The position numbers and the translations under genes are program-made. Positions 6,490 to 57,239 of a stretch of DNA of 57,239 nt are shown in pieces; the stretch's first letter is position 1; each line of letters starts with the position of its first letter. Source of the stretch: Candidatus Zixiibacteriota bacterium. Its GTDB lineage: Bacteria; Zixibacteria; MSB-5A5; GN15; JAAZOE01. The stretch is from assembly GCA_043819555.1 (NCBI GenBank), contig JBDREQ010000053.1:1-57239 (forward strand). Reading direction: 5' to 3'. Below the pieces are notes generated by a model, which was not told the origin of the DNA, made no database searches, and saw only the letters and a list, made by a program, of their open reading frames with translations.

Positions 6490-6490
6490 T

Positions 6491-6952
6491 TTATACTCCA
6501 GTCAAACACGTTGGCAAATCTACGATCTCAAACCAATAGCGGCTCAAGGTTTTCATTATATCTACTAATGATTCAAACGAAACCGGTTTGGTGATAAATG
6601 AATTAACGCCCAAATCATAGGTCCTTAATATGTCCTCTTCAGCCTTGGAAGTTGTAAGTACTACAATTGGAATTAGACGCAATTTGGGATTAGATTTAAT
6701 TTCCTTAAGCGCCTCTCTGCCGTCCTTTTTCGGCATATTTAGGTCAAGTAAGATTAATCCCGGCAAATTATCTGGCGAACGGTCGCTAAATTCATTGCGG
6801 CAGTTTAGATAATTCATCAGTTGTTCGCCATCTTCAACAATCACCAGTTCATTGCAGAGACGGTTATCTTCCAGGGCTTCCCGAGCCATTAAGGCATCAT
6901 CAGGATCATCCTCAGCCAGCAAGATGGTAATCGGTCTCGAATTGGCTTTCAT
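6491..6952 (-). CDS. Single-domain response regulator (Rcp1-like)
   Basis: ILLAEDDPDD, LLDLNMPKKDG, PIVVLTTS, YDLGVNSFITKP..YW. Confidence 0.92.
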   Translation of the reverse strand: MKANSRPITILLAEDDPDDALMAREALEDNRLCNELVIVEDGEQLMNYLNCRNEFSDRSPDNLPGLILLDLNMPKKDGREALKEIKSNPKLRLIPIVVLTTSKAEEDILRTYDLGVNSFITKPVSFESLVDIMKTLSRYWFEIVDLPTCLTGV

Positions 6953-8822
6953 TATCAGTATCTCCCTTCTTTATTTGTTTGGGTAAAGATATTATGAATT
7001 TCGCGCCTTTTCCCGGATGACTCTTAACGACAATGCTGCCGCCGTGCCGCTCGATTATTTTTCGGCAAATTGCCAGCCCGATTCCGGTTCCTTCATATTC
7101 GTCCCGCCCATGCAATCTCTGAAATATAGTAAAGATTCTATCCGAGTATTTTTGATCGAAACCGATACCATTATCTTCAATTACAATGCGGCACATACTT
7201 GAATTTGGATCCTTTGCGCATTCCTTGTCATCCGCGGCCGGCGAATATATTTTCACATGCGGTGCAACGCCAGGTTTATGGAATTTTAGCGCGTTTCCAA
7301 CCAGATTTTGTATTAATTGACGCATCTGAAGGGCGTCAGTTGTTACGACCGGTAAATCGCCCACCGTTACAAAGGCATTTAATTCTTCGATTCGAATTTC
7401 CAAATCGGAAAGTACTTCGGCGACTATTTTATTGAGATCCGTAGGGGTAGGCGGAAGCGCTTTGGTTGTTACTCTTGAAAAGGCCAATAAATCATCGATT
7501 AGCGTTTGCATGCGGTCAGCAGCATTTTGTATTCGCTTAAGATAATCACTTGCCTTCTCAGGTATGCTTTCACCTAAGGCAGTATTTAATCTATCTCCAA
7601 ATGCTCTGACTTTCCTCAGAGGCTCCTGTAAATCATGAGAAGCTATCGAAGCGAAATCCTGTAACTCCTTATTACTTCTCTCCAGGCGAACCGCAAAATC
7701 CTTTAATTTGTTTTCTGCTTTGATTTTTTCAGTAACTTCCCGGCAATTTACGACAATCCCATTTAGATCCTCAATATGTGGTAAATAGGTTGCCGCGCCT
7801 TCAAGATATAACCAGCATCCATTTTTGTGGTGAATTCTAAATGCGGGAAGACTGACAGTTATTCCGGGGTTATCAATAGAATCCTTTATGGCGACTTTAT
7901 ACTCATTGCAATCTAATGGATGTATCCATTTCTCTAATGTGTTCCTGGACAGATCTTGCTGTGATAAACCCAGTATTTTTTCCACCGAAGGACTGCAATA
8001 ACCGGTAATGCCATTGTCAGAAATTACAATAGTCAAATCTGTCGTGTTCTCAGTCATTGCCCGGAAATATTCTTCACTTTTTGAAAGAGCTTCCATGGCG
8101 CGGTCGCGCTCCTGACGACCCGATTCTATTTGATCGAGCATTTCATTAAAACCATTATAAAGAGAACCGATCTCGTCATTGCTTGATTTTTCGGCCCGTA
8201 TCGAATAGTCTTCCTTAATTGATATTTCCTTCGCTATTTTTGATAATTTTATAATGGGCGTGGAAATGATGGACTGCAATTTCCTTGCCAGAAAATAAGA
8301 TATGATAATAAGAATGGTCACGAGTAGAAGTATGGTACCAAGATAGCTTCTTATTTTGCTATCCATAACCTCCTCTGAAGCGACAATGTACAAATAACCA
8401 TAATTTTTATTTTCATGAATGATGGGTTTAATTAAGTGAAGATGATCCGAATAAAATTGCGTCACATCACCAGATTCTATGTATTCATAGTTAAGATAAG
8501 GATCATAATTATCGCTTCGATATATTGCAAATTCATTTCGATTCACGTCAAATAATGCGGCGTATTCAATCCAGTGTATGGTCGAATAGTTCTTCAGGAT
8601 ATCTTCGGCACCAGAATGATCATTGAATGCCAGAGCGGCGATGCAAGTGTTGCCGATTATGGTAGCGTTTAACTGGACATCTTCGATTAATTCCACCTTG
8701 TACGAAATCAAATCGGAAATAATGATATAAGTAAACCCGATAACAAGCACCAACAAAGACACCGAGAATATAATAAGAGTCAGTTTACTCTTAATGGTTA
8801 AATCCGAGAAGACTTTATTCAT
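6912..8822 (-). CDS. Membrane sensor histidine kinase (periplasmic CHASE8-like, HAMP, PAS, HisKA, HATPase)
   Basis: Two TM segments, HAMP (DEIGSLYNGFNEML), PAS, FASIASHDLQEPLR, FQRLH...GTGIGLAIC. Start 8822 chosen for GAGG SD and overlap with the yfiR stop. Confidence 0.9.
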   Translation of the reverse strand: MNKVFSDLTIKSKLTLIIFSVSLLVLVIGFTYIIISDLISYKVELIEDVQLNATIIGNTCIAALAFNDHSGAEDILKNYSTIHWIEYAALFDVNRNEFAIYRSDNYDPYLNYEYIESGDVTQFYSDHLHLIKPIIHENKNYGYLYIVASEEVMDSKIRSYLGTILLLVTILIIISYFLARKLQSIISTPIIKLSKIAKEISIKEDYSIRAEKSSNDEIGSLYNGFNEMLDQIESGRQERDRAMEALSKSEEYFRAMTENTTDLTIVISDNGITGYCSPSVEKILGLSQQDLSRNTLEKWIHPLDCNEYKVAIKDSIDNPGITVSLPAFRIHHKNGCWLYLEGAATYLPHIEDLNGIVVNCREVTEKIKAENKLKDFAVRLERSNKELQDFASIASHDLQEPLRKVRAFGDRLNTALGESIPEKASDYLKRIQNAADRMQTLIDDLLAFSRVTTKALPPTPTDLNKIVAEVLSDLEIRIEELNAFVTVGDLPVVTTDALQMRQLIQNLVGNALKFHKPGVAPHVKIYSPAADDKECAKDPNSSMCRIVIEDNGIGFDQKYSDRIFTIFQRLHGRDEYEGTGIGLAICRKIIERHGGSIVVKSHPGKGAKFIISLPKQIKKGDTDNESQFETDYHLAG

Positions 8823-42658: not shown

Positions 42659-45600
42659 ATGTTAGGATTCCATTCGATTGGGCGCAAATTTAGTCCCCCC
42701 ATATGCAAGTGCAGGACTAAAGGTTTTTTAATTTTAATCTGTACATGTTTATTGTTTTTTTCTGGAAGTGTATTCGCTGGGGAAATCTTTACTCACGCGC
42801 CGGAATACCCCCCCAGTGAAGATGCCGTAATTGAAGGTACCTATTGGGCCAATGAAAAAGTAACCCTTCAAGTTACTCACCTTGATGGTACTCTGCTGAC
42901 CGGTCCCGGAGGCGATCCATGGGAAGCTGACGCTACCTATGATGAATCAAATGCCGCTCCGGTAAAAGAATCCGGCGGGTTTTTAACCTACTGGAATGTT
43001 GACTGGGCCTATGCCGGTGATACATTGATGATTACGGCAGAAGGAAATGAATCGGGAACTACTGCCACGGCATCTTTTGTGAGTCCCAAAACTAGTTTAA
43101 ATCAGCTCCATAATGGGACATTCACATCTAATGCCGCATGGGCTAACGGGAATATTAACAGTAATAACTCCTGTTATTCGGAAGGCCGTTCTGTAGCCTA
43201 TCGGTATTTTATAAAAGAGTTGGATGCTGGAACCGAGCATTTCTTTACAATTCAGATGGAATGGACTAAGGGTGGAATTCATGCTCTCGATTATTTAACT
43301 GATTATGACGCCACCGAAACAGATGCCTTATTTGATGTCGGAGGAGCATGCGGGACAATGTCAACCAGTCCGCCTCCCGGATGCAACGATCCAACGGAAT
43401 CTTTTACCTTTCCGGATTTTCTTAATACTGCCAATTACTCCGGTACGATCCCACCGGACTTCTTTACAACTGTTAATCCCGGTTTTGTTCTTGACGGACC
43501 GAGAAATCTAAAAGCCTATAATGTAATAATAGATTCGATTGGCGATTACGCTTTTGGGGGCACTTCCAGTGACCGCAAATTGGAAATGGTAGTTTATTTC
43601 ACCGTCCGGACGACGAGCAGCGTTGGGTTTTTCTGGGGAGGCCATTTGGCTGAAAGTAGCGCGGATGCCTGGGGTGCCGGATATGGCTCCTCGGCCGTCG
43701 GCGGCGCTCCTTATCATATGCGCGCAAAATCTCTTGACGGAGGCGGGGGATGTAATCAAGATCGAAGTATCCAAAATGGTGTTATTTGTATGCCGCCTAA
43801 TACGGGTATCACGATGGATTTTTCAACTGTTTGTGATGTCGGTAATAATATGTATATTGCGACAGATACCGCTTCAACCGCCAATATGTGGACCTGGACC
43901 ATTACTAATGGTACAATCGTTGGTCCCGATGATCAGAGTTCTGTCAGTTTCACGGTTAATCCGGGTTTGGGGGCGGGAGACTTTGTCACTATTATGGTTG
44001 AATCATGCGACGGCACCTCCGGATGTCCCGGAGAATCCTGCTGCGCGACCGATTCGAAATCCATTCCTGTCGCAGTATGCAATCAGCCACCGGTAGCATC
44101 ATGTCCGGATAATGAATCGCATTCATTTCTTTGCACTCCCTCAGAAATATGCGTGGGACCATTTAGCGCCTCGGATCCTGACAATAATATTGTGAGTGAA
44201 ACGGTCGATTTTGGAGTTTTAAACGGCGGGAATGTATGTTTCACGCCTAATGCGGCCGGCGTTTATATAATTACTTATACGGTCACGGATGCATATGGCG
44301 CAACGGATGAATGTCAAACGGAAGTGACAGTTTCTTACGTCAATCAACCCCCGGTCTGTAATATTCCTGGCGATGCCAGTTATCTTGTATGTGGCGACAC
44401 AACCTTTAATATTCCGGTTTCCGCGACGGATCCTGATGGTAATCTAACCGGATGCACCAAAACATCCGGCCCGGGAACATATGATGGCAGCACCTGGATC
44501 TTTACTACGACGGCTCCGGGCGTTTATACCGCTACATTCGAATGTAGTGATGATTGCGGTGAAATTTGTGGTGGCACTGTTAATATAACGGTTGGATATA
44601 ACAGCGCCCCGGTTTGTAATATTCCGTCAAGCGGTACTTATTTCGTTTGCAGTGATACGACCTTTAGTTTCCCGGTTTCTGCTAACGATGTTGACGGAAA
44701 TCTTGTCAGCTGTATTCAAAAATCCGGAAATGGAACTTTCGACGGAACTAACTGGACTTTCACGACAACAGGCCCCGGAGCTTATTCGGCGACATTTGAA
44801 TGTACCGATGAATGCGGCGAAGTTTGTACCGGCTCAGTCAATATCAATGTCAATTACAATCATAATCCAGTTTGCAATATGCCGCCCCATAATAGTTATT
44901 TCGTTTGCGGCGATACTACTTTCAATATTCCCATATCAGCTACTGATGTAGATGGAAATCTGGTCGGTTGCACGAAGTTATCCGGCCCGGGAACTTTCAA
45001 TGGCAGCACATGGACATTTACATCATCGGGCGACGGCACATATATCGCAACCTTTGAATGTACCGATGAATGCGGCTCTTCCTGCACGGGCGAGGCCAAA
45101 GTGACGGTAACGAATAATAAAGCTCCAACGCCGCAGTGTCCGGATAATCAGACCATATTTGTTTGCGACTTATCACCGATTACGATCAATGGATTTATAT
45201 GTGAAGATCCCAATGGTAATTTGGCGACTTGTGAAGTTGATGTTGGTGAGTTAGTTGGAGATGCGGTGACATTTACACCCATTGAAGGCCCAAATGTTAT
45301 TACAATAACAGCTACTGATGATTGCGGCGCGGTAGGAACCTGTTATACAACAGTGACGGTTGTTCTCAATGGCCCGCCGGTGGCGTCTTGTCCCGGTAAT
45401 GAATCGCATTCATTCCTGTGCGAGCCATCAGAGATTTGCGTTTCCGGATTTTCATCCTCTGACCCAGATAACAATATAGTAGAGGAATTGGTTAGTCTTG
45501 GAACGCTCACCGATGGAACGGTATGCTTTACTCCTGATGCTCCGGGAGTTTATACGATAATTTATACTGTTACTGATGCCTGCGGGGAAACTGATGAATG

Positions 45601-48600
45601 TCAGACCCAGGTAACGGTAACGTTTGATAATAATCCGCCGGTCTGCAATATTCCAGGGGACGCTTCGTATTTCGTCTGCGGAGATACGACTTTTAATTTC
45701 TCGGTATCCGCGACCGATCCCGATGGCAACTTAACTGGCTGTACCAAGATTTCCGGCCCGGGAAGTTATGACGGCAGTACCTGGACGTTTACGACGACTG
45801 CTCCGGGCGTATATACGGCGACTTTCGAATGCAGCGATGATTGCGGTTTAACTTGCGGCGGAACGGTTAATATAACAGTTGGATATAACAGCGCTCCGGT
45901 GTGTAATATCCCCGATGACGCATCATACTTCGTTTGTGGAGATACAACTTTTAATATCCCGGTGTCGGCGACTGACGTTGACGGCAATCTGGTTGGCTGT
46001 ACCAAGACTTCCGGTCCGGGCAGTTTTGATGGCAGTACCTGGACGTTTACCACGACTGCTCCGGGTGTATATACGGCAACGTTTGAATGTTCAGATGAAT
46101 GCGGAGAGGTTTGCGGAGGGACGGTCAATATCACGGTTGGATACAACAGCGCTCCCGTATGCGAATTGCCGACTCCCGAAAAATGTGATTATTATATTTG
46201 TCAGGATACGACTTTTAATATAGAAATATCAGCTACTGATGTTGATGATAACTTAGTTGGTTGTACAAAGACTTCCGGCCCCGGTAGTTTTGATGGCAGT
46301 ATCTGGACCTTCGATGTTACAGCGTCCGGCACATTTACGGCGACTTTTGAATGTGTTGATGAATGCGGTGAAATCTGCGGCGGTACGGTTGTTATAACAG
46401 TCGCTAAGAATCAGCCGCCAGTTGCTTCGTGTCCCGGTAATGAATCGCATTCATTCCTGTGCGAGCCATCAGAGATTTGCGTTTCCGGATTTTCATCCGC
46501 TGACCCAGATAACAATATAGTAGAGGAATCGGTTAGTCTTGGAACTCTCACCGATGGAACGGTTTGCTTCACCCCAGATGCTCCGGGAGTTTATACGATA
46601 ATTTATACAGTTACCGATGCCTGCGGTAAGACCGATGAATGTCAGACGCAAGTGACGGTCTCATTTGATAATAATTCACCGGTATGTGATTTGCCTTCGA
46701 ACGGAACTTATTTTGTCTGCGCAGATACGACTTTTAATTTCTCGGTATCAGCGACCGATCCTGACGATAATCTGGTTGGGTGTGAAATGACATCAGGCTC
46801 CGGAATTCTGAATGGCGGTATCTGGACATTTACGACAACCGGTCCGGGTGTTTATTCGGCAACATTTGAATGCAGCGATGATTGCGGATTGACTTGCGGT
46901 GGAACTGTCGAAATTACTGTTAATTACAATCAGGCCCCGGTTGTATCATGTCCCGGCAATGAAACATTCCAATTCGCATGCGAACCTGGCGAAATCTGTG
47001 TAGGACCGTTTAGCGCGACAGATGCCGATAATAACACCGTGGACGAGGTCGTTGATCTGGGTACTTTGACAGACGGAACGGTTTGCTTTACGCCGACATC
47101 GGCAGGGGTTTATACCATAACTTACACTGTCACTGATGCCTGTGGCACAACATCTGAGTGTCAAACAGAAGTAACTGTTGAGCTTGGCAATCAACCGCCG
47201 GTTTGCGATCTCCCAGCCAATACAACATACTTTATCTGTGGCGATTCAACTTTCAATTTTGAAATATCGGCCACCGATCCTGATGATAATCTAGCTGGGT
47301 GTGAAATGACTTCCGGAGATGGCAGTTTTGACGGTACAACCTGGACTTTCACGGCGACCACGGCGGGACAGTATTCAGCGACATTTGAATGCACCGATGA
47401 ATGCGGTTTGACATGCGGCGGAATGGTAACTATGACAATTCAGATGAATAATCCGCCGCCCTGTGATCTACCGCAAAGCGCCTCTTATTTTGTATGCGAT
47501 GATACGACATTCAGTTTCCCTGTTTCCGCGACCGATCCTGACGGAAACCTGGTCGGATGCGAGAAGACCTCTGGTGTCGGAACTCTGATTGATGGCATTT
47601 GGTCATTCACGACAACTGGTCCGGGAACTTATTCTGCTTCGTTTGAATGTAGCGATGCATGCGGCGAGACTTGCGGCGGCTCTGTAGATATAACCGTTAC
47701 ATATAATAATGATCCTGTGGCGACGGTTCCTAATCCGATGACTATGAACGTGTGTACATTGTCGGAGTTAGTCATTGGAGGATTCTCATGTTCAGATCCT
47801 GATGGTAATCTGGCACGGTGTGAAACAGATGTTGGTACATATAGTAATGGCGAGGTAAGATTCACTCCTGTCGCAGGCGCAAATGTTATAACACTGTTTG
47901 CGGTCGATGAATGCGGTATGGTTGATTCTGCCAAAACCACGGTGACTATTAATCTGAATCATACGCCTACATGCGATATAATTAATCATGAATATTTCCA
48001 ATGTGTACCAAGTCAGGTTTGCGAACCTAAAGTAGCAACCGATCCTGATGGTGATATAACGATTGGTGAAATTATCTTAGGTCCGGGCGTTTTTGAGAAT
48101 GGCCAATGGTGCTATACGCCGGAAGGTAGTGAAACTGTTGAAGTAACTATTCGATTCACAGATATGTGCGGCGCTTATTGCGATGGCACTTTCACGGCAG
48201 AATTTAATATAAATGATGGTCCCGTTGCTTCCTGTCCCGGCAATCAAACCAAGTACCTATTCAGTTTGGGTGAGATTTGTGTCGATGGTCTTGAATGCAG
48301 TGATCCCGATGATAATCTAACCAGTTGCCAGATTTTGGTTAATGGTGCCAGTGAAACTTTGGTTGATGGTACTGTATGTTTCGACCCGGTCTGGGGCGAT
48401 AATATTATCGAATTAACAGCCACCGATGCCTGTGGACAATCAGCGACTTGTCAAACAGTGATTACCGTCGAAGAATTATATGAGTGTCCAATTGTCAAAA
48501 TTGAAAAAACGCATAATACTCTGCAAGGTCATTACACCAATGTTGAAGTCACTATAGAAAATGGCAATTTTGATTTGGCCGGTTTTGATCTGTTATTGTC

Positions 48601-49972
48601 TTATGATGCGTCTGCTCTTTCATTCATAAATGCCGAAGCGGGTGACTTGCTCCAATATTGCGGTTGGGAGCACTTCTCGTATCGTTTCGGTTCCAGAGGC
48701 AATTGTGGAGGTTCTTGTCCTTCCGGACTACTCAGAATAATCGGTTTGGCGGAAACGAATAATGGCTCTCTACATCCCGACTGTTTTGGCGCGCCCACCG
48801 GTGATCCGTGGCAATTGGCAGTGTTGACTTTCTTTGTTTCCAATGACCGCACCTTTAACTGCATGTATGCCCCGATTAAATTCTTCTGGGACGATTGCGG
48901 AGATAACGCCTTGTCGAATATCACCGGCGATAGCCTGATAATCGGCGGCAGGATTTATGATTTTGAAGGCAATCTTATCTGGGATGAACTCGATGATATA
49001 AATTATCCCGAAAATGATCGTATTCCGTTCACCGGGACTCCTGATTTGTGTGGAAACGAAGGAAAGTATCCCCCTATCCGATGCGTTGATTATGTGTATG
49101 GCGGGATCGATATTGTATGTTCAGATTCAATCGATGATCGCGGCGATGTAAATATGAATGGATTGCCCAACGAAGTTGCCGATGCGGTAATGTTAACCAA
49201 CTACTTTATTGGCGGTTTGACAGCCTTTGGTAATCACAGTGAAGCATCGATCGCCGCATCTGATGTCAATGCCGATGGAGTATCGCTAACGGTTGCTGAC
49301 CTGGTTTACCTCGTCCGAATAATTACCGGTGATACCAGCCCAATATTAAAGCCAATCTTAAGATCAGAATTCAATATAACCTCGCATATGCGGGAAGATC
49401 GAATCGATATCAAGTATGATTCTGAAACTAAGGCAGGAGCGGCGTTACTCATATTTGAGACATTGGGGAATGCGGGTATACCAATACTTGGCGAAGGCGC
49501 CGAAAATATGGATATGACATACGGCGTCGAAGGCAATCAGTTGCGGGTATTGATTTATAATATTGGTTCACAATCGATATCATCTGGTGTTAACACACTA
49601 TTATCAATCCCGGCCGAGGGTTCGATAACTTTGATTGACGCCGAGATTGCCGATTATTTTGGCGGAATGATGACAACAAACCTAAAAACAATTCCGGATA
49701 ATTTCCGGTTAAGCCAGAATTATCCGAATCCATTTAATCCTTCAACATCTATAAGTCTATCAATGGCTGTACCGGGCAATTGGAGCATTGCTGTTTACAA
49801 TATCGCCGGTCAGAAAATCCGGGAGTATTCCGGATATTCAGAGGCTGGCATTGTATCAGTAACCTGGGACGGTTCGGACGAAAGCGGCCGCAAAGTGGCT
49901 TCCGGAATCTACTTATACAAAGCTGTTAGCGGCGACTTTAATGCCACGCGAAAGATGGTGTTGATGAAGTAA
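42659..49972 (+). CDS. Giant exported Cys-rich repeat protein with cohesin-like, dockerin-like and FlgD/T9SS-type C-terminal domains
   Basis: Signal peptide (SVFA|G); 17 tandem ~85-aa modules; AGFDLLLSYD cohesin-like segment; RGDVNMNG..VADAVML / ASDVNADG..VADLVYL; LSQNYPNPFNPST...WDG..SGIYLY..KMVLMK. Confidence 0.85.
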   Translation: MLGFHSIGRKFSPPICKCRTKGFLILICTCLLFFSGSVFAGEIFTHAPEYPPSEDAVIEGTYWANEKVTLQVTHLDGTLLTGPGGDPWEADATYDESNAAPVKESGGFLTYWNVDWAYAGDTLMITAEGNESGTTATASFVSPKTSLNQLHNGTFTSNAAWANGNINSNNSCYSEGRSVAYRYFIKELDAGTEHFFTIQMEWTKGGIHALDYLTDYDATETDALFDVGGACGTMSTSPPPGCNDPTESFTFPDFLNTANYSGTIPPDFFTTVNPGFVLDGPRNLKAYNVIIDSIGDYAFGGTSSDRKLEMVVYFTVRTTSSVGFFWGGHLAESSADAWGAGYGSSAVGGAPYHMRAKSLDGGGGCNQDRSIQNGVICMPPNTGITMDFSTVCDVGNNMYIATDTASTANMWTWTITNGTIVGPDDQSSVSFTVNPGLGAGDFVTIMVESCDGTSGCPGESCCATDSKSIPVAVCNQPPVASCPDNESHSFLCTPSEICVGPFSASDPDNNIVSETVDFGVLNGGNVCFTPNAAGVYIITYTVTDAYGATDECQTEVTVSYVNQPPVCNIPGDASYLVCGDTTFNIPVSATDPDGNLTGCTKTSGPGTYDGSTWIFTTTAPGVYTATFECSDDCGEICGGTVNITVGYNSAPVCNIPSSGTYFVCSDTTFSFPVSANDVDGNLVSCIQKSGNGTFDGTNWTFTTTGPGAYSATFECTDECGEVCTGSVNINVNYNHNPVCNMPPHNSYFVCGDTTFNIPISATDVDGNLVGCTKLSGPGTFNGSTWTFTSSGDGTYIATFECTDECGSSCTGEAKVTVTNNKAPTPQCPDNQTIFVCDLSPITINGFICEDPNGNLATCEVDVGELVGDAVTFTPIEGPNVITITATDDCGAVGTCYTTVTVVLNGPPVASCPGNESHSFLCEPSEICVSGFSSSDPDNNIVEELVSLGTLTDGTVCFTPDAPGVYTIIYTVTDACGETDECQTQVTVTFDNNPPVCNIPGDASYFVCGDTTFNFSVSATDPDGNLTGCTKISGPGSYDGSTWTFTTTAPGVYTATFECSDDCGLTCGGTVNITVGYNSAPVCNIPDDASYFVCGDTTFNIPVSATDVDGNLVGCTKTSGPGSFDGSTWTFTTTAPGVYTATFECSDECGEVCGGTVNITVGYNSAPVCELPTPEKCDYYICQDTTFNIEISATDVDDNLVGCTKTSGPGSFDGSIWTFDVTASGTFTATFECVDECGEICGGTVVITVAKNQPPVASCPGNESHSFLCEPSEICVSGFSSADPDNNIVEESVSLGTLTDGTVCFTPDAPGVYTIIYTVTDACGKTDECQTQVTVSFDNNSPVCDLPSNGTYFVCADTTFNFSVSATDPDDNLVGCEMTSGSGILNGGIWTFTTTGPGVYSATFECSDDCGLTCGGTVEITVNYNQAPVVSCPGNETFQFACEPGEICVGPFSATDADNNTVDEVVDLGTLTDGTVCFTPTSAGVYTITYTVTDACGTTSECQTEVTVELGNQPPVCDLPANTTYFICGDSTFNFEISATDPDDNLAGCEMTSGDGSFDGTTWTFTATTAGQYSATFECTDECGLTCGGMVTMTIQMNNPPPCDLPQSASYFVCDDTTFSFPVSATDPDGNLVGCEKTSGVGTLIDGIWSFTTTGPGTYSASFECSDACGETCGGSVDITVTYNNDPVATVPNPMTMNVCTLSELVIGGFSCSDPDGNLARCETDVGTYSNGEVRFTPVAGANVITLFAVDECGMVDSAKTTVTINLNHTPTCDIINHEYFQCVPSQVCEPKVATDPDGDITIGEIILGPGVFENGQWCYTPEGSETVEVTIRFTDMCGAYCDGTFTAEFNINDGPVASCPGNQTKYLFSLGEICVDGLECSDPDDNLTSCQILVNGASETLVDGTVCFDPVWGDNIIELTATDACGQSATCQTVITVEELYECPIVKIEKTHNTLQGHYTNVEVTIENGNFDLAGFDLLLSYDASALSFINAEAGDLLQYCGWEHFSYRFGSRGNCGGSCPSGLLRIIGLAETNNGSLHPDCFGAPTGDPWQLAVLTFFVSNDRTFNCMYAPIKFFWDDCGDNALSNITGDSLIIGGRIYDFEGNLIWDELDDINYPENDRIPFTGTPDLCGNEGKYPPIRCVDYVYGGIDIVCSDSIDDRGDVNMNGLPNEVADAVMLTNYFIGGLTAFGNHSEASIAASDVNADGVSLTVADLVYLVRIITGDTSPILKPILRSEFNITSHMREDRIDIKYDSETKAGAALLIFETLGNAGIPILGEGAENMDMTYGVEGNQLRVLIYNIGSQSISSGVNTLLSIPAEGSITLIDAEIADYFGGMMTTNLKTIPDNFRLSQNYPNPFNPSTSISLSMAVPGNWSIAVYNIAGQKIREYSGYSEAGIVSVTWDGSDESGRKVASGIYLYKAVSGDFNATRKMVLMK
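44081..48480 (+). repeat. 17 intragenic Ig-like Cys-rich modules (order A B B B C A B B B A B A B B C D C)
   Basis: Type A NxPPVASCPxNESHSFLCEP..TDACG; type B NxAPVCxIP..YFVCGDTTF..FECxDxCGxxC; A2 and A3 nearly identical at DNA level. Confidence 0.9.
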
Positions 49973-49993
49973 TATATTCCCCAATTCAATGCT

Positions 49994-50025
49994 AAAAACC
50001 CCCTGGAAAACACAGGGGGTTTTTT
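49994..50025. terminator. Bidirectional terminator
   Basis: AAAAACCCCCTG-GAAAACA-CAGGGGGTTTTTT between convergent genes. Confidence 0.85.
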
Positions 50026-50044
50026 ATTATCCCTGGAACGGCTA

Positions 50045-50877
50045 TTAGCCTTTGTCGGGAGACATAATGGCAAAGGAATGCATTTCATATTCAATTCTCG
50101 GTCCATAATGCATGCGCAATGAAGGATTAGAATAAAGAAAACCGGCTTTAGTAAACAAATGAATTGCCTCGGTGTTTATGCCGGGCAAGCCAGTTGATAA
50201 ATAAACAGTTTTATAATCGTTGAGAATTTGGTCAAGAATTGACTGAGCAGCATTTACGGATTTTGCCACAAATGGTCCTATAACATAGCCGCCGTTAGAT
50301 ATTGGTCGGACAAATGAATATCCATTGATAGTATTTTCTTCGGCGGTATAAAGTCTATCTTTAAATTCCTTATATAATGGGTAAGGAGGCGGCTATGGTC
50401 CTTCCCCGTTAATTCTTTGTCTAAATGCAAAATATCCTTGCAGGGTGCGTCCGGCTCTTTCCGGTTCGGCGAGAATTCCTTTTTTAGACCCGGTCGGAAT
50501 AATCTAAGCGACAAATACTTATCACGAAAATTAAGCCTTCGATAAAGCGGGACGGCCGGGAAGACACCATCGAGCTCAATTGTTGCGACTTTATCCTTTT
50601 TCAATCTATCAATAGCATGGAGTACCAGGGACTCGCCAATTTTTCGTCCCCGGAATTGGGGGGGGACTATCAGGGTACCCAGAAAGGCGCTGTCCGCGTA
50701 CTTTATTGAAGTGACAATGCCAACCGGTTCTTCGCCCTTCCAGGCGACAAAACATCCATCAGGAGACAGATTGACCAGGCGGACAAAACCTTCGCGTGTA
50801 TAACCCCATTCCTCATAGTCAGTTAGGGATTTAGCAAAATCAATATCTTCATATGTCATGCATCGTATATCACTCAT
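50045..50877 (-). pseudogene. Two-domain GNAT acetyltransferase (YitH-like) split by a frameshift near 50372
   Basis: LIVPPQFRGRKIG..LYRRLNF in the 5' ORF; the alternative frame continues KEFKDRLY..GYSFVRP..YVIGPFVA into the 50045..50269 ORF. Confidence 0.8.
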
Positions 50878-51087
50878 ATTATATCCTCCAATATTTTTTT
50901 GCCAAGTTATTTAAATAATTAAATTTTGCAATAAAAATTCCGGGAATAAAGAATATGGCCGTTTCATTTAAATAAGTTAGCTGAATGTCGATATTACATT
51001 AATTAAGGTACAGACGATAAAAATCAGAGATTGTGCAATTATTGGAAATGAATAGCTTGAATTTGCGGCAATATTTTTGCTAATTAT

Positions 51088-52539
51088 ATGGATTTCCGAA
51101 TGAAATTGCCGCGAAAGGAGAAAATCTTGACTCTGGATAAGTTATCAAAATACGCAAAAGCCAATAGGGCCGAATATATTGACATGAAGTTTTCTGATCT
51201 TCCCGGAAGCTGGCATCATATAACACTTCCGATTTCGTCTTTGAATAGCCAATTATTGATTGATGGTGTAGGCGTGGATGGTAGTTCATTGCCAGGGTTT
51301 TCTCGAATAGAACGGGGCGATATGATTGCGCTGCCGGATACCGATACCGTATTTGTCGATCCTTTCTTTGAATTGCCGACGATTTCGTTTATATGCGATA
51401 TTTATGACGTGAGCGAAAAGATGAAACCGTATTCTCGCAATCCGCGGAGAATAGCCAAGGATGCGGAAAAATTCCTTCAGAAATACGTCAAGGGGGCAAG
51501 CCTGATTATTGGTCCGGAATTCGAGTTTTATATTTTTGATAAAGTGAATTTTTTTCAGGGCCCGGACAGCGCTTTTTATTATATCGATTCCAAGGAGGCG
51601 GAATGGAATGCTGCCCAGGATGAAGAAAATCTTGGGTATAAAATACCCTATAAAAAGGGATATCATGTTGCTCCTCCGATGGACAGGACATTTAATATCC
51701 GTTCGACCATATCATCAATACTGGCAAGTTTGGGCATTGATCTGAAGTATCATCATCATGAAGTCGGGGGTGGCGGCCAGCATGAAATTGAGGTGAAATT
51801 TCAACCTCTTTTGAAAATGGCCGATCAAACGATGATGGTTAAATATGTTGTAAAGAATCAATGCTTTCGACTAAGTAAGTCGGCGACTTTTATGCCCAAA
51901 CCGCTGTTTAATGAACCGGGTTCAGGGCTCCATGTCCATCAGTATCTGGCCGATAAAAACGGTTCGATATTTTATGATAAAAAGGGACCCGCCAGATTTT
52001 CAAAAATCGGATTGCATTATATTGGCGGCGTCTTAAAGCATGTCGATTCAATTCTCGCTTTTTCAAATCCCTCCACAAATTCCTTCAAGCGATTAGTACC
52101 GGGGTTTGAGGCTCCGGTTGCCGGAACATACTCCGTCGGCAATCGGACGGCATGCATAAGGATCCCCGGCTATCAAAAGGATCCGAAGACGATGAGATTT
52201 GAGTTTCGCCCCCCTGATGGAACCATGAACGCTTACCTTTCTTATTCGGCCATGTTAATGGCCGGTATTGACGGAATACGAAATAAGATTGATCCCGGCT
52301 TGCCATTAGATAAAAATCTCGATGAAATGCCATTGGAAGAGTTGGCCAAAATCCATCAGTTACCGACTTCACTGACAAAAGCGCTCAACGCTCTTGAAAA
52401 TGATCATGATTATCTATTGGAGGGCGGCGTATTTACAGAAGATCTCCTGCAAACCTGGATTGGACTGAAGAGTAAAGAAGTTGACCAAATTCGCATCCGT
52501 CCGACGCCTTATGAGTTTGAAGTTTATTATAATACCTAA
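51088..52539 (+). CDS. glnA: Glutamine synthetase type I
   Basis: DGSSLPGF, GPEFEFYIF, HHHEVG, ATFMPKP, GSGLHVH, NSFKRLVPGFEAP, NRTACIRIP, RFEFRPPD. Confidence 0.96.
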   Translation: MDFRMKLPRKEKILTLDKLSKYAKANRAEYIDMKFSDLPGSWHHITLPISSLNSQLLIDGVGVDGSSLPGFSRIERGDMIALPDTDTVFVDPFFELPTISFICDIYDVSEKMKPYSRNPRRIAKDAEKFLQKYVKGASLIIGPEFEFYIFDKVNFFQGPDSAFYYIDSKEAEWNAAQDEENLGYKIPYKKGYHVAPPMDRTFNIRSTISSILASLGIDLKYHHHEVGGGGQHEIEVKFQPLLKMADQTMMVKYVVKNQCFRLSKSATFMPKPLFNEPGSGLHVHQYLADKNGSIFYDKKGPARFSKIGLHYIGGVLKHVDSILAFSNPSTNSFKRLVPGFEAPVAGTYSVGNRTACIRIPGYQKDPKTMRFEFRPPDGTMNAYLSYSAMLMAGIDGIRNKIDPGLPLDKNLDEMPLEELAKIHQLPTSLTKALNALENDHDYLLEGGVFTEDLLQTWIGLKSKEVDQIRIRPTPYEFEVYYNT

Positions 52540-52558
52540 TTGAGATGTTTTATGCCAG

Positions 52559-53074
52559 ATGATCAAATTAAAAGAAAAATACATACTGGCTAATTGCTGT
52601 TCTCCTCAGTTAAGCGATAGTATTACCGGTTATTTTAGCTATGATGACAAAATAAAAGTCCACCGCTCTGATTGTGGCAATCTTATTAAGGCGGATAAAT
52701 CCAGATTATTGGACTTGAGGTGGGATGAGATTTGCGAGGAAGAAGATTTTATCCCGAGTGATGATTTTGCGACTCTAACTAAGATTGATTTTCTCCTGAT
52801 GGAACACCACAAGAATTATGGTTTTGATTATTCGAGAAAGATAGCTTCAATGTACAAACTCGACAAGCAGGCTGTTTTTGAGAGTCATGCCAAATTGAGA
52901 GAGATGAAATTATTAGAGCGAGTCGAGCCGCGCATGATTCAATATCGTAAAAATATCGTCAAGGGAAAGTGGATAAAACATCGCAATCATACTTATTATG
53001 ATTTGACGGATAAGGGCAAGAAATACTATGATTATTTTATCAAACAATCAAAAGGGAGAAATAATAAATTCTAA
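52559..53074 (+). CDS. RelA/SpoT-type zinc-finger domain fused to DUF2250-like winged helix
   Basis: LANCCSP..DSITGY..IKVHRSDCGNL..RLLDLRW followed by GFDYSRKIA..LLERVE..KHRNHTYYDLTDKG. Confidence 0.7.
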   Translation: MIKLKEKYILANCCSPQLSDSITGYFSYDDKIKVHRSDCGNLIKADKSRLLDLRWDEICEEEDFIPSDDFATLTKIDFLLMEHHKNYGFDYSRKIASMYKLDKQAVFESHAKLREMKLLERVEPRMIQYRKNIVKGKWIKHRNHTYYDLTDKGKKYYDYFIKQSKGRNNKF

Positions 53075-54690
53075 TCGCATTCAGGGGGAGAGCCGCCTTT
53101 AAAAGTAAAATTTATTAAAAATACGGCATCGCCGACGTTTACTCGGCCATCGGAATTGGCATCAGCGGCTTCAGGATATTCAGGGGGAAGCCCGCCCTTG
53201 AAGATAAGATTTATGATAAATACGGCATCGCCAATGTTTACATCAGAATCGTTATTGGCATCACCGCAAACATATGGCGGAGGTATTGATAAAGATACAT
53301 CCAGTCTAATGCCATTATTCTCAGAAACGTCGATATCGTATATTATTAATGTATCATATCCAGCTGAAGTAAATTCAATATCATAAGTTCCCGGTTCAAT
53401 CATTCGGTGATAGTCGCCAACATCGGGGTCCGTAAACACTCGCGAGCTATCCAAATCACTATCATGGCTCGGTATTCGAATCGAGGCCAATAAGGGTAAA
53501 CCTGTTTGCTCATCTGTGACAACCCCTCGAATTCCAAATAGCGCGTTTTCAATATAATGTAGAAAGCTTGATCTGTTGTAGTTCCAGAATTCCAGGAGCA
53601 GTGATTCGGGCAGAAATTTAATGTCCGAAATTTCTATCAATACTTCCCGACATCCGTGCCAATAGTTCATATAATCCTGTCTGCCGCCGGTGATAGGATA
53701 CCAGGCATATCCATTGGTTATGCCATTGTTGCGGTCAGTCAAATAATTAGCCGGGGAGTAGTATTGGGCGGAATCGGCATAGTCGCGTGAGATATCGATA
53801 AACCAATTATCATCAGTGTGCAGGCGCGACCAGGTATCCCAGGGGTAATTGATGACTTCGGCGCCGCCATGGAAATTCACGGCAAGGCAAAACGATTGCG
53901 CCGCGGCAAGGTTCATCATCACCGTAGTTTCTGCTTGCCAACCGTTACCATCCGGGTGAGGGCCGTCGTCCGGGTCGGGATAGTTACGATTCAAATCAAC
54001 ACCCATAGCATTAAACCGAGTCGGAAGATAAATGGCATTATCACCGGTTGAATAGGTACCGTCGGGATTTGCCAGCGGATTTATCCAAATTTCACAACTG
54101 TCAACCAGTCGAGAAATCAGTTCATTATTCCCGTAATTTTGCAGGAGATAATCGATAAGCCGAAGCATAAGTACATAGCCGGTTGTTTCATCGCCATGCA
54201 TCGAACTCGTGAGGAATACCTCCGGTTCATCCTCCTCCAACTCAATATTATCCGAAATCCGAGCGACAAGGATTTGATGATCCATTACCGAAGAGCCGGC
54301 ATCAATAATCTGACAATATTCTGGGAAATCCGCCTGGAATTGATACATCATGGCCACGTAAGCAGGGTAAGTTGGGTAAACATCCCAATCAGCCATTGAG
54401 TTTTTATCCAGCCCCATTTTTGGTGAAAACAAACTGCCAGGGTGAGGAAGACTTTTATAAAAATATCCGCGATTCTCAAGATTGGCTAACTGTTGTGGCG
54501 TTCCATAAGCGAAGACCGTATTGCCTTTGATATTATCAATAGAAATCAATCTGGTTAACTCATTCAAATTGGTTTGGGAATCAACCTGTATCTCTATATA
54601 ATACTCGGATACGCCAGCGGAAATTGCCGTCGCAAAAACGAGCAGAACAATAATGGTTTGCAGAATATTCAATCTTGTGCCTCTGTTCAT
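53071..54690 (-). CDS. Exported M14 zinc carboxypeptidase with C-terminal dockerin-like domain
   Basis: MHGDE, NPDG, DLNRNYP, NFHGGA..NYPWD, GGRQDY; GDANNDSDVNIGDAVFIIN / ADANSDGRVNVGDAVFLIN. Confidence 0.92.
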   Translation of the reverse strand: MNRGTRLNILQTIIVLLVFATAISAGVSEYYIEIQVDSQTNLNELTRLISIDNIKGNTVFAYGTPQQLANLENRGYFYKSLPHPGSLFSPKMGLDKNSMADWDVYPTYPAYVAMMYQFQADFPEYCQIIDAGSSVMDHQILVARISDNIELEEDEPEVFLTSSMHGDETTGYVLMLRLIDYLLQNYGNNELISRLVDSCEIWINPLANPDGTYSTGDNAIYLPTRFNAMGVDLNRNYPDPDDGPHPDGNGWQAETTVMMNLAAAQSFCLAVNFHGGAEVINYPWDTWSRLHTDDNWFIDISRDYADSAQYYSPANYLTDRNNGITNGYAWYPITGGRQDYMNYWHGCREVLIEISDIKFLPESLLLEFWNYNRSSFLHYIENALFGIRGVVTDEQTGLPLLASIRIPSHDSDLDSSRVFTDPDVGDYHRMIEPGTYDIEFTSAGYDTLIIYDIDVSENNGIRLDVSLSIPPPYVCGDANNDSDVNIGDAVFIINLIFKGGLPPEYPEAADANSDGRVNVGDAVFLINFTFKGGSPPECD

Positions 54691-54865
54691 ATATTATATT
54701 TCGGCTTTTGGCCGATTATTTTCAGTTGTTATGACATAGCAGTAACAATACGATCCGTTAAGAGTAAAATAGTCAATATTATTTTTTCGTCAATTGCTAA
54801 TTTTTGATTGAATTTTGTATGAAAAATGATAAATATAGTAAGGTGCGTATTCAGGAAGGAGTGTT

Positions 54866-55378
54866 ATGATTGGAATAAATAGTTTGAGGACTAATTCAAT
54901 CCTGGCGGCTTTATTAATAATCTGTAATTTTGTTATTTCGGCCTGCAAGGAGGATGATAGTTTATTTCAGGAAAAGAAAAAAGACATGATTTCTGAGGCC
55001 AAAAATGCAGTCGGCTTGGTGACGGTTGATGAATTGGCGGAAATAATGAGCAATAATCAAGAGTTTTCAATAATCGATATTAGGACCGAAGACGAATATA
55101 CTCAGGGTCATATAAATGGCTCCGTTTGGATTGCCCGAGGCATGCTTGAATTCAAGGCGGGGCAGGGGCCATTAAAAGATTTCGATAAAAAATATATCTT
55201 GTATTGCCGGGTAGATTCTCGGAGCGCGTTGGCCGCAAAAACACTTATCGATCTGGGTTATCAAGACGTTTCGATTTTGAAGGGCGGTTTTTCCGTCTGG
55301 TGCAACGCCGGGTATAGTATTTATAATCGCCACGGTGAAATGACTGTAAAATCTTTCGAGCGAGAAGAAACGGAATAA
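54866..55378 (+). CDS. Rhodanese-domain lipoprotein
   Basis: Lipobox ISAC; IDIRTEDEY..GHING; active loop YCRVDSRS; LKGGFSVW. Confidence 0.88.
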   Translation: MIGINSLRTNSILAALLIICNFVISACKEDDSLFQEKKKDMISEAKNAVGLVTVDELAEIMSNNQEFSIIDIRTEDEYTQGHINGSVWIARGMLEFKAGQGPLKDFDKKYILYCRVDSRSALAAKTLIDLGYQDVSILKGGFSVWCNAGYSIYNRHGEMTVKSFEREETE

Positions 55379-55477
55379 TTGCATCGGAAAGATGAGAGAA
55401 TGTATTAAACAGGCTTGGTAAAGGCAGGAGAATAATTAATATCCTCCTGCCCATTCCATGTATAACGGTGAACCGTA

Positions 55478-55921
55478 TTATTTTATGGTAATCTCCTGCA
55501 TCAATTTACCGCCGAAAATCTCCCGGATTTTCTCACGGCCTAAGCTCTTTTTGATTTGTTCGTCTTCTGTACCAATTGCGTTTTCGATGATAGCCTCAAA
55601 TTTGTCGCCCAATCCGTCAAGGGCGGCGTAGTTTTCATATTCGACCATCAGCATTACATCCCAGTCGTCAGGATTGGAGGCTCCACCGACAAAGACCGTA
55701 TAAGATAAGATTAATCCCTCTTTCAAAGCGGCGTCCATGACTTTTTTCCAGGCCCCCTGCAGGTCTTTGATATATTGATCCTGCATATTGGCTTCGGTTT
55801 GAATTAATGATATTTGCCAAACAGAGCCTTCAGTGTAGGGCGATTCGGCGGACACAATCGGAGTGATAAAAATAAAAATCAATGATAAAATTACGGCGGC
55901 GGTAATACCAAGGCGAAGCAT
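55478..55921 (-). CDS. Hypothetical exported protein
   Basis: GGAGG SD, signal peptide VSA|E, YTEGSVW..DDWDVMLMVEY; upstream TTGACT-N17-TATATA promoter. Confidence 0.75.
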   Translation of the reverse strand: MLRLGITAAVILSLIFIFITPIVSAESPYTEGSVWQISLIQTEANMQDQYIKDLQGAWKKVMDAALKEGLILSYTVFVGGASNPDDWDVMLMVEYENYAALDGLGDKFEAIIENAIGTEDEQIKKSLGREKIREIFGGKLMQEITIK

Positions 55922-56209
55922 AATTACCTCCCGGTTTAAAATACTTGATAATAATGAGTCCGGCCTGATGATTATAATGGCAAATGCTGATAAGATAAAT
56001 TACTGACGGGCCCCCATTGCCTCGGCGAGTTATATAATAAATACTCTCGGAAAAGTCAAGCGTCTGGCTTAGTATTTTTGAAAATGGGTTTGTTTCCTCA
56101 GATTAACGCGTATTATTTATCTAACAATTATTTTCCTTGTGATACAATAAGTTATTGACATTTCATACTCCGTTATTTATATATTCTAACATATTTCTAA
56201 GGAGTTTGC

Positions 56210-57239
56210 ATGGCTAGTATTCATTTTAAGAAACGAAAAGATGGTGGGAAAACCTACTATGTGGTGGTCTGCATGCCGGGTAGCCATAAGTGGATTAAGG
56301 GAGGATCTCTTAAAGACGCCAAGATTTTGAAAAAAGAAATTGAATCATTGGAAAAATCCAAAAGGATTGAGAAGTTGGGACTTGTGAACGAGAAGAAACG
56401 CATTGACGCTTTCTTTCAGGAATATGCAGACCATGTGCGCTTAAGAACTGCACCCAGTACCTTGAAACGATATCTTACAGTGTTAAATACTGTTATCATA
56501 TTTTTGAAGATGTTTCACCCCAAAATCAAGTTTCTCGTGCAGATTACACCTGAGATTATTGAGTCGTATCAAGTACAACGTTTGAAGTCTATTGAATTGA
56601 AGAGTTCAGCAGATGGAGATAAATCCGGAGTTCATAGAAAAAAGCGCTTACCCCTTCCTCAAACGGTAAACACCGAAGTCATAGTGTTGGGCTCAGCATT
56701 TATTTGGGCTTATAGCCGAGAACTAATTCCTTCAGTACCGACCAAAAAAGTAAAGCCGCTTCGAGCCAAACTAAAAAGAAAAGTCAGACTTCTCGATCAA
56801 AGAGAATGCAAGCATTTTTTGAAAACTGCGCGGCAAATGGCCAGAGATAATAAACGACTCAAAGTATTTTATTTGATTTTCAAATTCTTACTCAATACAG
56901 GTCTGCGATCAGGAGAATTATGCAATTTAACCTGGGATGATGTTAATCTTGAAACCGGCTTGATAAAAATTCAGCCAAAAGAAGGGTGGACACCAAAAAC
57001 ATATTCCAGAGAGTTCTTTCTAAATGAACATTCAATAAAAATCCTAAAGCGGATTGGTCAGTCAGAAGGATTGATATTCAGAACCAATACTGGTAAACAA
57101 CTCGACACCGATGATATACGACGAGCATTAATAAAAATAGCCAAAGAAGCGGGACTTAATGACCTTACCAAAGTCCATGACCTCAGACATACATTCAATT
57201 CATTAATGCAAATGAATGGAGTTGATCCAGCCACAATGA
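56210..57239 (+). CDS. Tyrosine recombinase/phage integrase (truncated by window end; absent from the ORF track)
   Basis: AAGGAG SD, ATG 56210, open to the end; LLNTGLRSGELCNLTWDDV, TPKT, KVHDLRHTF. Confidence 0.9.
   Translation, partial: MASIHFKKRKDGGKTYYVVVCMPGSHKWIKGGSLKDAKILKKEIESLEKSKRIEKLGLVNEKKRIDAFFQEYADHVRLRTAPSTLKRYLTVLNTVIIFLKMFHPKIKFLVQITPEIIESYQVQRLKSIELKSSADGDKSGVHRKKRLPLPQTVNTEVIVLGSAFIWAYSRELIPSVPTKKVKPLRAKLKRKVRLLDQRECKHFLKTARQMARDNKRLKVFYLIFKFLLNTGLRSGELCNLTWDDVNLETGLIKIQPKEGWTPKTYSREFFLNEHSIKILKRIGQSEGLIFRTNTGKQLDTDDIRRALIKIAKEAGLNDLTKVHDLRHTFNSLMQMNGVDPATM

Follow-up and report, generated by a model that had tools for sequence, protein, structure and literature searches.

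A RelA/SpoT-type zinc finger fused to a DUF2250 winged helix in a conserved family of small proteins from Zixibacteria, Poribacteria and other bacteria

The fusion of a RelA/SpoT-type zinc-finger domain (ZFD) with a DUF2250 winged helix forms a conserved single-copy protein family that extends over at least three phyla. The member analyzed here is a 171-aa protein encoded in the window, by which we mean the whole stretch of 57,239 nt of contig JBDREQ010000053.1 from a Candidatus Zixiibacteriota bacterium (assembly GCA_043819555.1). By analogy with the structural relatives of its C-terminal half, it may well be a nucleic-acid-binding protein, most likely one that binds DNA, in which the finger would serve as a second contact or as a partner-binding input; we favor this reading tentatively and weigh it below against the alternatives. 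The features of the locus are as follows.

51088..52539, + strand: glnA, encoding a type I glutamine synthetase of 483 aa; upstream neighbor on the same strand
52540..52558, + strand: spacer of 19 nt between the glnA stop codon and the start codon of the ORF
52559..53074, + strand: ZFD-DUF2250 ORF with an ATG start, encoding 171 aa (20.6 kDa, pI 9.2)
52580..52726, + strand: RelA/SpoT-type zinc-finger domain (ZFD, also RIS or CC), residues 8–56, assigned from profile, sequence and fold
52595–52597, 52598–52600, 52661–52663 and 52673–52675, + strand: codons of the predicted zinc ligands C13, C14, H35 and C39, respectively
52727..52789, + strand: acidic linker, residues 57–77, net charge −7 (family median −8)
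52790..53023, + strand: DUF2250 winged helix-turn-helix (PF10007), residues 78–155, net charge +8 (family median +7.5)
52919..52996, + strand: extended basic wing, residues 121–146, net charge +7, pI 11
53071..54690, − strand: M14 carboxypeptidase with a dockerin domain, convergent and not part of the unit

The start codon of the ORF is supported by an M-x-LKE beginning that the homologs share with it, and at the other end the 3' end of the carboxypeptidase/dockerin gene overlaps its stop codon by 4 nt. The genome from which the window comes is 97% complete and contains one copy of the ZFD-DUF2250 gene.

The N-terminal zinc-finger domain

Residues 8–56 are a RelA/SpoT-type ZFD with all four CCHC ligands. 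Residues 6–62 match positions 553–611 of the NCBIfam model TIGR00691 (spoT_relA) with an E value of 1.8e-8, the score over the 171-aa protein (33.2 bits) staying far below the cut-off of 499. When the protein was compared with PDB chains by phmmer, residues 9/10–57 aligned to the ZFDs of Bacillus subtilis Rel (6htq_x, E 5e-4) and Mycobacterium smegmatis Rsh (8fr8_I), and to residues 608–659 of Escherichia coli RelA (5iqr_8, E 0.01), so that C13, C14, H35 and C39 correspond to C612/C613, H634 and C638 of RelA. A model of residues 1–62 alone (pLDDT 91.5) has four strands (8–10, 22–26, 32–36 and 50–52) and a short helix, and its nine best matches in the PDB are all long RSH chains (6htq, 5kpv, 5kps, 5iqr, four chains of 7qpr, and 8fr8) with TM scores by query of 0.65–0.73, the next match having an E value of 2. 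The local Pfam model PF19296 (RelA_AH_RIS, 185 positions) gave no match to the protein at an E value of 1 or less and does match the Rel protein encoded elsewhere in the same genome; the Pfam 38.1 model PF28438, named RelA_RIS in the Atlas, is precomputed on all 120 homologs listed out of 445.

The domain is complete from its first strand to the closing RL-x-x-x-W motif, and it aligns without gaps over its whole length to the fingers of 14 long RSH proteins. It thus shares with the RSH domain (approximately residues 585/594–663 of E. coli RelA, represented by PF28438 and by the C-terminal part of PF19296) the CCHC pattern, the four strands and helix, and a core of A-x-CC-x-P, I-x-G-Y/F, V/I-H-R/K-x-x-C and R-L-x-x-x-W. 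C13, C14, P16, H35 and C39 are invariant in all 44 aligned homologs, the four ligands are again invariant in a second set of 37, and the pattern CCxP...Hx3C is kept in each of the 40 Poribacteria orthologs found among the best 80 of 306 relatives. Only 14 of 49 positions in the ZFD are conserved in both Zixibacteria and Poribacteria, namely the zinc ligands together with Y8, A11, P16, I22, G24, Y25, V34, R49, L50 and W55; nearly all of these recur in the aligned RSH domains, and they therefore look like residues of the core fold.

Unlike in RSH enzymes, the finger stands at the N-terminus of a protein that lacks the helical domain, and a Pfam scan of the 171 aa found no HD, synthetase, TGS or ACT domain. 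The first-pass annotation, which had described an orphan RelA/SpoT zinc finger without synthetase, TGS or ACT domain, is therefore borne out by profile, PDB-chain alignment, fold, the invariant CCHC set and the domain scan. A complete Rel is encoded separately in the genome (C7:24193-26229; 727 aa; HD_4, RelA_SpoT, TGS, RelA_AH_RIS and ACT_4 domains), and its ZFD is 28–30% identical to that of the 171-aa protein. Given this intact Rel gene and the low identity of the two fingers, we rule out that the ORF is a split or decayed fragment of Rel.

The presence of a resident Rel with its own ZFD also bears on a different role, in which the 171-aa protein would modulate Rel in trans, its free finger touching the C-terminal region of Rel and damping or tuning (p)ppGpp synthesis. 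There is a precedent in YG4, an artificial fragment of E. coli RelA (RIS plus ACT, aa 564–744) that inhibits synthesis by RelA through what is described as direct contact between RelA and the fragment rather than competition for the ribosome (PMC7669825). RelA Cys-638, the equivalent of C39 in the ZFD-DUF2250 protein, is given there as critical for the effect (PMC7669825). YG4 is likewise a free RIS polypeptide acting in trans on a stringent factor; unlike the natural protein analyzed here, it was made artificially and carries ACT instead of a winged helix (PMC7669825). We consider modulation of Rel very unlikely, however: oligomerization of RelA via its C-terminal domain is disputed, a contrary report being cited in PMC7669825, the finger has diverged from that of the resident Rel to the extent given above, no linkage to rel was seen in any locus examined, and such a role would leave the strongly conserved basic winged helix unexplained.

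The DUF2250 winged helix

The remainder of the protein had been likened to DUF2250 and a winged helix from its sequence, and this assignment holds. Residues 78–155 match PF10007 with 44.2 bits against a gathering cut-off of 24.4, a genome search with DUF2250 returned the same coordinates with 45.3 bits, and the fold is MarR/PadR-like in a model of the full-length protein (pLDDT 87.3, pTM 0.63) that also includes the linker at high confidence (block means 88–97). Residues 65–171 of this model superpose on DNA-bound and free winged helices of the MarR, PadR and ArsR families with Z scores of 10–12.3 and an rmsd of 1.6–3.2 A over 79–93 residues (Foldseek E values of about 7e-4 to 8e-3), the best match being 3bj6_B (Z 12.3, rmsd 1.9 A, 89 residues) and the PadR chains reaching Z 10–11. 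The likeness to these regulators includes the C-terminal helix that follows the wing. Unlike in MarR and PadR proteins, however, the wing is unusually long and invariant, there is neither a MarR-like ligand pocket nor a dimer domain of that type, and the Pfam profiles stay below their cut-offs, PadR scoring 11.3 bits against a cut-off of 27 and MarR giving no match. A homodimer prediction from two copies with an alignment, run without controls, scored 0.00 and weighs neither for nor against dimerization.

The wing comprises about 23 residues between the strands at 119–122 and 146–149, of which residues 130–137 are modeled with low confidence. Adjoining that segment, W138, K140, H141, R142, N143, H144, T145 and Y146 are invariant, and the block W-I-K-H-R-N-H-T-Y-Y is present in 44 of 44 family members; the HTYYxLT ending pointed out in the first-pass annotation falls within it. 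Conservation between Zixibacteria and Poribacteria is denser here than in the finger, with 32 of 73 positions of the winged helix conserved in both phyla versus the 14 of 49 in the ZFD. Judged from these alignments, purifying selection has acted mainly on the zinc site and, more strongly still, on the wing of the winged helix.

Stand-alone DUF2250 proteins share PF10007 with the fusion and include those of Desulfurella, Athalassotoga/Mesoaciditoga, Hydrogenobaculum and Desulfofundulus as well as tandem copies in haloarchaea. They have in common with it a helix of the form H/Y-x-K-x-x-G-x-D/E-Y and the K-H-R-N-H-T-Y-Y block, which occurs in all eight stand-alone proteins aligned (Desulfurella, Athalassotoga/Thermotogota and Desulfofundulus-type clusters) and which we take, from our own reading of the alignments, as a signature of DUF2250. 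They differ in being 92–118 aa long and in having no zinc finger (0 of 13 loci). Across Zixibacteria, Thermotogota, Aquificota, Desulfurella and Bacillota the block does not vary. DUF2250 had been called mostly archaeal, a description that does not fit the relatives listed, among which the closest stand-alone proteins belong to Thermotogota, Desulfurella, Aquificota and Bacillota. A longer DUF2250 protein of 287 aa (P0187) has an N-terminus that reads as coiled-coil-like in its sequence. This protein gave no PCRF match, and an apparent translation link through an Atlas cluster from Bacillota labeled DUF2250 plus PCRF (release factor) was accordingly given no weight.

Distribution and gene neighborhoods

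In all, 445 relatives were found at an E value of 0.001 or less in a protein collection at 90% identity, and all 120 of the 445 that were listed carry both Pfam tags, those with names being Zixibacteria or FCB-group bacteria. At the level of 50% identity there are about two full-length clusters, the other matches being fragments, fingers of long RSH proteins, and stand-alone DUF2250. Within the phylum of the window, Zixibacteria, 164 of 285 genomes carry the gene, among them 117 of the 198 genomes of good quality, and it occurs in 83 of 130 genera, nearly always as a single copy. It is absent from 121 of the 285 genomes including whole families, and is thus dispensable. DUF2250 was found in 158 of these 285 genomes with one match each, apart from one genome that has a second match at a contig end; its coordinates coincide with those of the fused gene wherever both searches list a place, and no stand-alone DUF2250 was seen in the 285 genomes.

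Beyond this phylum, one genome per species was scanned with an alignment of stand-alone DUF2250 proteins; this yielded 306 relatives, of which the best 80 were kept, and the fused form was scored as a CCxP motif upstream of DUF2250 in the same frame. Among these best 80 of 306, the fused form was found in 40 of 40 records from Poribacteria, 9 of 9 labeled Zixibacteria, 11 of 11 labeled Ignavibacteria or Ignavibacteriales, one each from Calditrichota and the FCB group, and 3 of 4 unclassified records, whereas 13 records from Desulfurella, Thermotogota, Aquificota and a MAG labeled Nanoarchaeia have DUF2250 alone. The Poribacteria orthologs are 40–49% identical to the window protein over its full length. 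No fused form longer than 300 aa was scored in a search with residues 66–171, which is weak evidence.

The gene next to the ORF in the window is identified as one for type I glutamine synthetase by TIGR00653, which it matches with 531.6 bits (cut-off 429), as well as by the Pfam models Gln-synt_N and Gln-synt_C, and direct reading of positions 52540–52558 agrees with the earlier statement that the ORF begins 19 bp behind glnA on the same strand. No terminator-like site was found between the two genes in the window, and the last 60 nt upstream of the start codon, spacer included, fold weakly (−2.1 kcal/mol); from these two observations it is plausible that the genes are co-transcribed in this genome. 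Such an arrangement would suit a dedicated regulator of glnA or of nitrogen metabolism, as the first-pass annotation had suggested, comparable with a glnRA-type pair. GlnR and TnrA of Bacillus are regulators of the MerR family, and they are encoded upstream of glnA (glnRA operon). Like them, the ZFD-DUF2250 protein is a small protein of DNA-binding type encoded beside a type I glnA; unlike them, it has no MerR domain, its gene lies downstream of glnA, and the adjacency occurs in one family only.

The extent of this adjacency was determined in a context survey of 81 Zixibacteria loci with about 5–6 kb on each side, or less at contig ends. In the family of the window genome (f1), 12 of 13 loci have glnA upstream in the same orientation, and the contig of the 13th (4.3 kb) ends before the position of glnA. 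The linkage proposed as a check is not conserved among the homologs beyond this family: glnA was found in none of the 68 Zixibacteria loci of eight other families (flanks of about 5–6 kb or less) and in none of 40 Poribacteria loci (flanks of 4 kb or less; from the best 80 of 306 relatives). An earlier pass with flanks of 1.5 kb had found it in 8 of 29 loci, all of them f1. Even inside f1, a gene of the nitroreductase family (PF00881) intervenes between glnA and the ZFD-DUF2250 gene in 4 of the 13 loci, and four others (L034, L063, L064 and L066) have a hairpin of −15 to −27 kcal/mol with a T-run abutting the start codon. The window genome furthermore has two GSI genes, the second on contig C33. 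Adjacency to glnA is therefore lineage-specific, and the ZFD-DUF2250 gene is not a dedicated partner of glnA. As a family-wide property, a dedicated glnA regulator is largely refuted, and despite the close spacing in the window and the consistent order within f1 we regard this role as highly improbable; nitrogen control likewise finds no support as a property of the family.

Other lineages place the gene in other surroundings. In family f2 a DUF819 gene diverges from it in 24 loci and a Met-zincin gene lies downstream, as does a nitroreductase gene in 16 loci; in f4 the gene immediately before it encodes a nitroreductase in 5 of 16 loci, and in a sixth a short ORF stands between the two; in f9 a pseudouridine synthase gene is upstream and TldD/PmbA-type genes are downstream; in f10 genes of the mevalonate pathway adjoin it; and in f14 the gene immediately preceding it, in the same orientation, is folD in 4 of 8 loci, or else there is a divergent histidine kinase gene. 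Further neighbors among the lineages include PCMT, cytochrome bd and DUF169. Poribacteria have an array of purD, the ZFD-DUF2250 gene, and genes for a VWA protein, a short-chain dehydrogenase, a 104-aa ORF and a polyprenyl synthetase, with purD upstream in all 40 loci (from the best 80 of 306), adjacent in 33 and mostly at gaps of 5–43 nt. In Hydrogenobaculum/Aquificaceae, glyA lies directly upstream of stand-alone DUF2250 in 3 of 3 loci. No operon partner conserved across lineages was found in the loci compared.

The recurrence of glnA, folD, purD and glyA, all of which supply purine synthesis, directly upstream on the same strand in four separate lineages would fit a narrower form of the transcription-factor reading, extended to stand-alone DUF2250, in which the protein regulates or is co-expressed with genes for nitrogen, one-carbon and purine supply. 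This category was defined post hoc, though, about eight other lineages have unrelated neighbors, related genomes are not independent observations, and no shared operator was found across 14 lineage groups, which together make this form of the reading quite unlikely. In the upstream regions of those 14 groups, shared inverted repeats did not rise above shuffled controls. The best candidate operator, with an ATATTT half-site, was rejected: it formed an inverted repeat in 4 of the 14 groups as against up to 3 in 20 shuffles, and it is AT-rich.

Promoter-like signals point to a unit that often stands by itself. In 24 of 80 Zixibacteria loci, 5–8 nt separate the end of a TATATT box from the start codon, and the hexamer occurs within 15 nt of the start codon in 20 of 27 loci of f2, 3 of 3 of f10 and 3 of 4 of f16; the 15,600 positions contain only 42 such hexamers. 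An excess of TT lies about 22 nt ahead of the box. The box together with the upstream TT suggests that the gene often has its own promoter and forms an independent unit, and the mRNA from these loci is probably leaderless or nearly so, judging from the position of the box. An alignment of 27 promoters shows no evident conserved palindrome in the stretch from the −35-like TT to the TATATT box.

Possible targets and meaning of the fusion

The reading we favor is that of a free-standing two-domain regulator. The protein unites two folds directed at nucleic acid in a small basic chain. A zinc-stabilized RIS/ZFD finger would have been copied from long RelA/SpoT enzymes and joined through the conserved acidic linker to a basic DUF2250 winged helix of MarR/PadR type, which would sit where Rel has RRM/ACT. 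Nucleic acid would be contacted by the recognition helix together with the long basic wing, and the winged helix would most likely act on DNA as a transcription regulator, DNA being its likeliest target by analogy with its structural relatives; candidate contacts for the finger are an RNA or DNA groove, the ribosome, and Rel. Lack of a conserved operon partner is usual for a stand-alone regulator. Some observations count against this reading, among them the lack of a DNA target in the inverted-repeat search over 14 lineage groups and the PadR and MarR profile results. The invariance of the wing block across distant phyla would be expected of a protein with a universal target as well, rRNA for instance. 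Winged helices can also bind RNA, and the fold matches include, at Z 11.2, that of the N-terminus of Rio2 kinase; Rio2 acts on pre-40S ribosomal particles. In addition, the role documented for RIS/ZFD in PMC4974054, PMC5829649 and PMC7669825 is ribosome binding and regulation of Rel, not DNA binding; as the only documented role, it weighs against a DNA regulator.

The main rival is a ribosome factor, in which the finger would dock as in RelA at bridge B1a, formed by 23S rRNA helix 38 (H38) and uS19, the winged helix would take over the role of RRM/ACT on the A-site finger, and the protein would mark or block ribosomes with an empty A site or compete with Rel for its anchor site. According to structural work (PMC4974054; Loveland et al. 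2016), the ZFD is the major ribosome-binding element of RelA, its helix 638–647 occupying the H38 minor groove and its sheet packing against S19, and the H38–ZFD contact is described as key to RelA binding in PMC5829649 as well as PMC8012599 and PMC6606846. The 171-aa protein has kept the whole ZFD in an ungapped alignment and the same fold, its order of ZFD followed by a second domain mirrors ZFD-RRM in Rel, and the wing invariance fits a universal RNA target. Several points count against this rival. Residues 40–48, which align to the H38-contacting helix, read N-L-x-K-A in Zixibacteria versus x-x-x-x-L-R-x-E in Poribacteria and are thus unconserved across the family, and where RSH ZFDs typically have a basic T-R-G-R-G loop, this family has S-H/Y-D-N/D. 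The gene is also dispensable, as its absence from 121 of 285 genomes indicates, and neither the 81 Zixibacteria nor the 40 Poribacteria loci showed ribosomal or translation genes linked to it. We regard a ribosome factor as less likely than the DNA-binding reading.

A bolder version, which we think unlikely, would make the protein a free copy of the ribosome anchor of Rel: its finger would sit on helix 38 and uS19 of ribosomes with an empty A site, the winged helix replacing the RRM, and the protein would either compete with Rel and so set the threshold of the stringent response or be released to DNA according to ribosome occupancy.

What is new is the recombination of known parts, in which the ribosome-anchor finger of Rel is found outside Rel. 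Both domains are already tagged by Pfam 38.1, the NCBI name is DUF2250 domain-containing protein, and an Atlas cluster of 260 members is automatically named 'DUF2250/RelA/SpoT RIS domain-containing protein'. A literature search of main texts returned no publication on the ZFD-DUF2250 protein and no function for DUF2250; a search for RelA_RIS, PF28438 and PF10007 gave nothing on the protein, its text matches being Plasmodium gene names, and a search on Zixibacteria with glutamine synthetase likewise yielded nothing on it.

In the structures and literature searched, RIS/ZFD is confined to long RelA/SpoT enzymes, in which it provides the main attachment to the ribosome. A detached finger joined to a winged helix in a conserved family means that the module can work alone, and a soluble protein of 20 kDa offers a simple experimental handle on what the finger recognizes outside Rel. 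With glnA adjacency confined to one lineage, an attractive but weak account based on nitrogen control falls away. Zixibacteria and Poribacteria are, to our knowledge, phyla without cultured representatives. If the protein binds the ribosome or Rel, it would represent a new class of stringent-response modulators in these two phyla; if it binds DNA, this would be the first function for DUF2250, a domain spread over bacteria and archaea; and if it is held on the ribosome and released to DNA, it would be a direct protein link from translation to transcription with no need for (p)ppGpp.

Genes adjoining the ZFD-DUF2250 gene

Four separate lineages have glnA, folD, glyA or purD as the immediate co-directional neighbour upstream, the gene beside glyA being a stand-alone DUF2250 gene rather than the fused form. 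The locations of these genes (L-numbers denote fetched loci), together with that of the other type I glutamine synthetase gene of the window's genome, are as follows:

Window 51088-52539, same strand as the ZFD-DUF2250 gene: glnA
L050, L086, L088 and L091: folD
L124, L129 and L130: glyA, beside stand-alone DUF2250
Poribacteria loci: purD
G000:C33:17707-19005 (window's genome, contig C33), + strand: the other type I glutamine synthetase gene, with a frame of 460 codons and a score of 508.5 bits

Viewed post hoc, the pattern common to glnA, folD, glyA and purD is the supply of purine synthesis.

The most recurrent neighbour across families is a nitroreductase-family gene (PF00881), which lies between glnA and the ZFD-DUF2250 gene in 4 of the 13 loci of the window's own family (f1), upstream in 6/16 loci of family f4 (immediately adjacent in five, with a single short ORF intervening in L046) and downstream in 16 of the 28 loci of family f2. 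The copy from the window's genus has a signal-peptide-like N-terminus. Poribacteria carry a conserved co-directional array in which purD and the ZFD-DUF2250 gene are followed by a VWA-domain protein gene, a short-chain dehydrogenase gene, a 104-aa ORF that matches no family and a polyprenyl synthetase gene; its first four genes are kept in 39-40 of 40 genomes. In all three Desulfurella records, a stand-alone DUF2250 gene is flanked by an HD-domain gene and by rplU-rpmA-obg (encoding L21, L27 and the Obg GTPase), all on the same strand.

L005:2009-2809, - strand: nitroreductase-family gene (PF00881); also in L059-L062 and in f4 and f2 loci
L138-L197, around 2400-8000, one strand: Poribacteria array
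L118-L120, 3454-5872, one strand: Desulfurella DUF2250 neighbourhood

Two further genes of the window are listed below; the first encodes a C-terminal end that we take to resemble a type IX secretion sorting tail. A search for a tRNA gene in window 49900-57239 found none.

Window 42659-49972, + strand: 2437-aa protein with many repeated cysteine-rich modules
Window 56210-57238, + strand: phage-integrase-family gene (PF00589), running off the window end

Expression signals

In a survey confined to the regions upstream of ZFD-DUF2250 homologues, 24 of 80 Zixibacteria loci have a TATATT box ending 5-8 nt 5' of the start codon, and TT is enriched about 22 nt upstream at such loci. Together these sequence signals suggest a promoter belonging to the gene itself, and an mRNA that is leaderless or nearly so, in families f2, f10 and f16. 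The box is absent upstream of the gene in f1. At L034, L063, L064 and L066, a GC-rich hairpin (-15 to -27 kcal/mol) with a T-run behind it abuts the start codon between glnA and the gene, whose expression there would depend entirely on transcription continuing past the glnA terminator or on a promoter within glnA.

Immediately 5' of the homologue in L035, L038-L040, L042, L098-L100, L103, L105-L108, L110-L112, L114-L117, L049, L084, L085, L053, L095 and L096: TATATT box

Taxonomic labels and the acidic linker

The fused gene is also present, with a Zixibacteria-like sequence, in 11 records titled Ignavibacteriales or Ignavibacteria, and the taxonomic labels of these MAGs may be inconsistent.

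Between the two domains lies a conserved, very acidic linker (residues 57-77; window 52727-52789), whose net charge is -7 here and has a family median of -8 over 21 residues. In the window protein it adjoins a wing, the basic extension of the winged helix (residues 121-146), of charge +7. Purely by conjecture, the linker could fold against the wing and act as a built-in mimic of nucleic acid.
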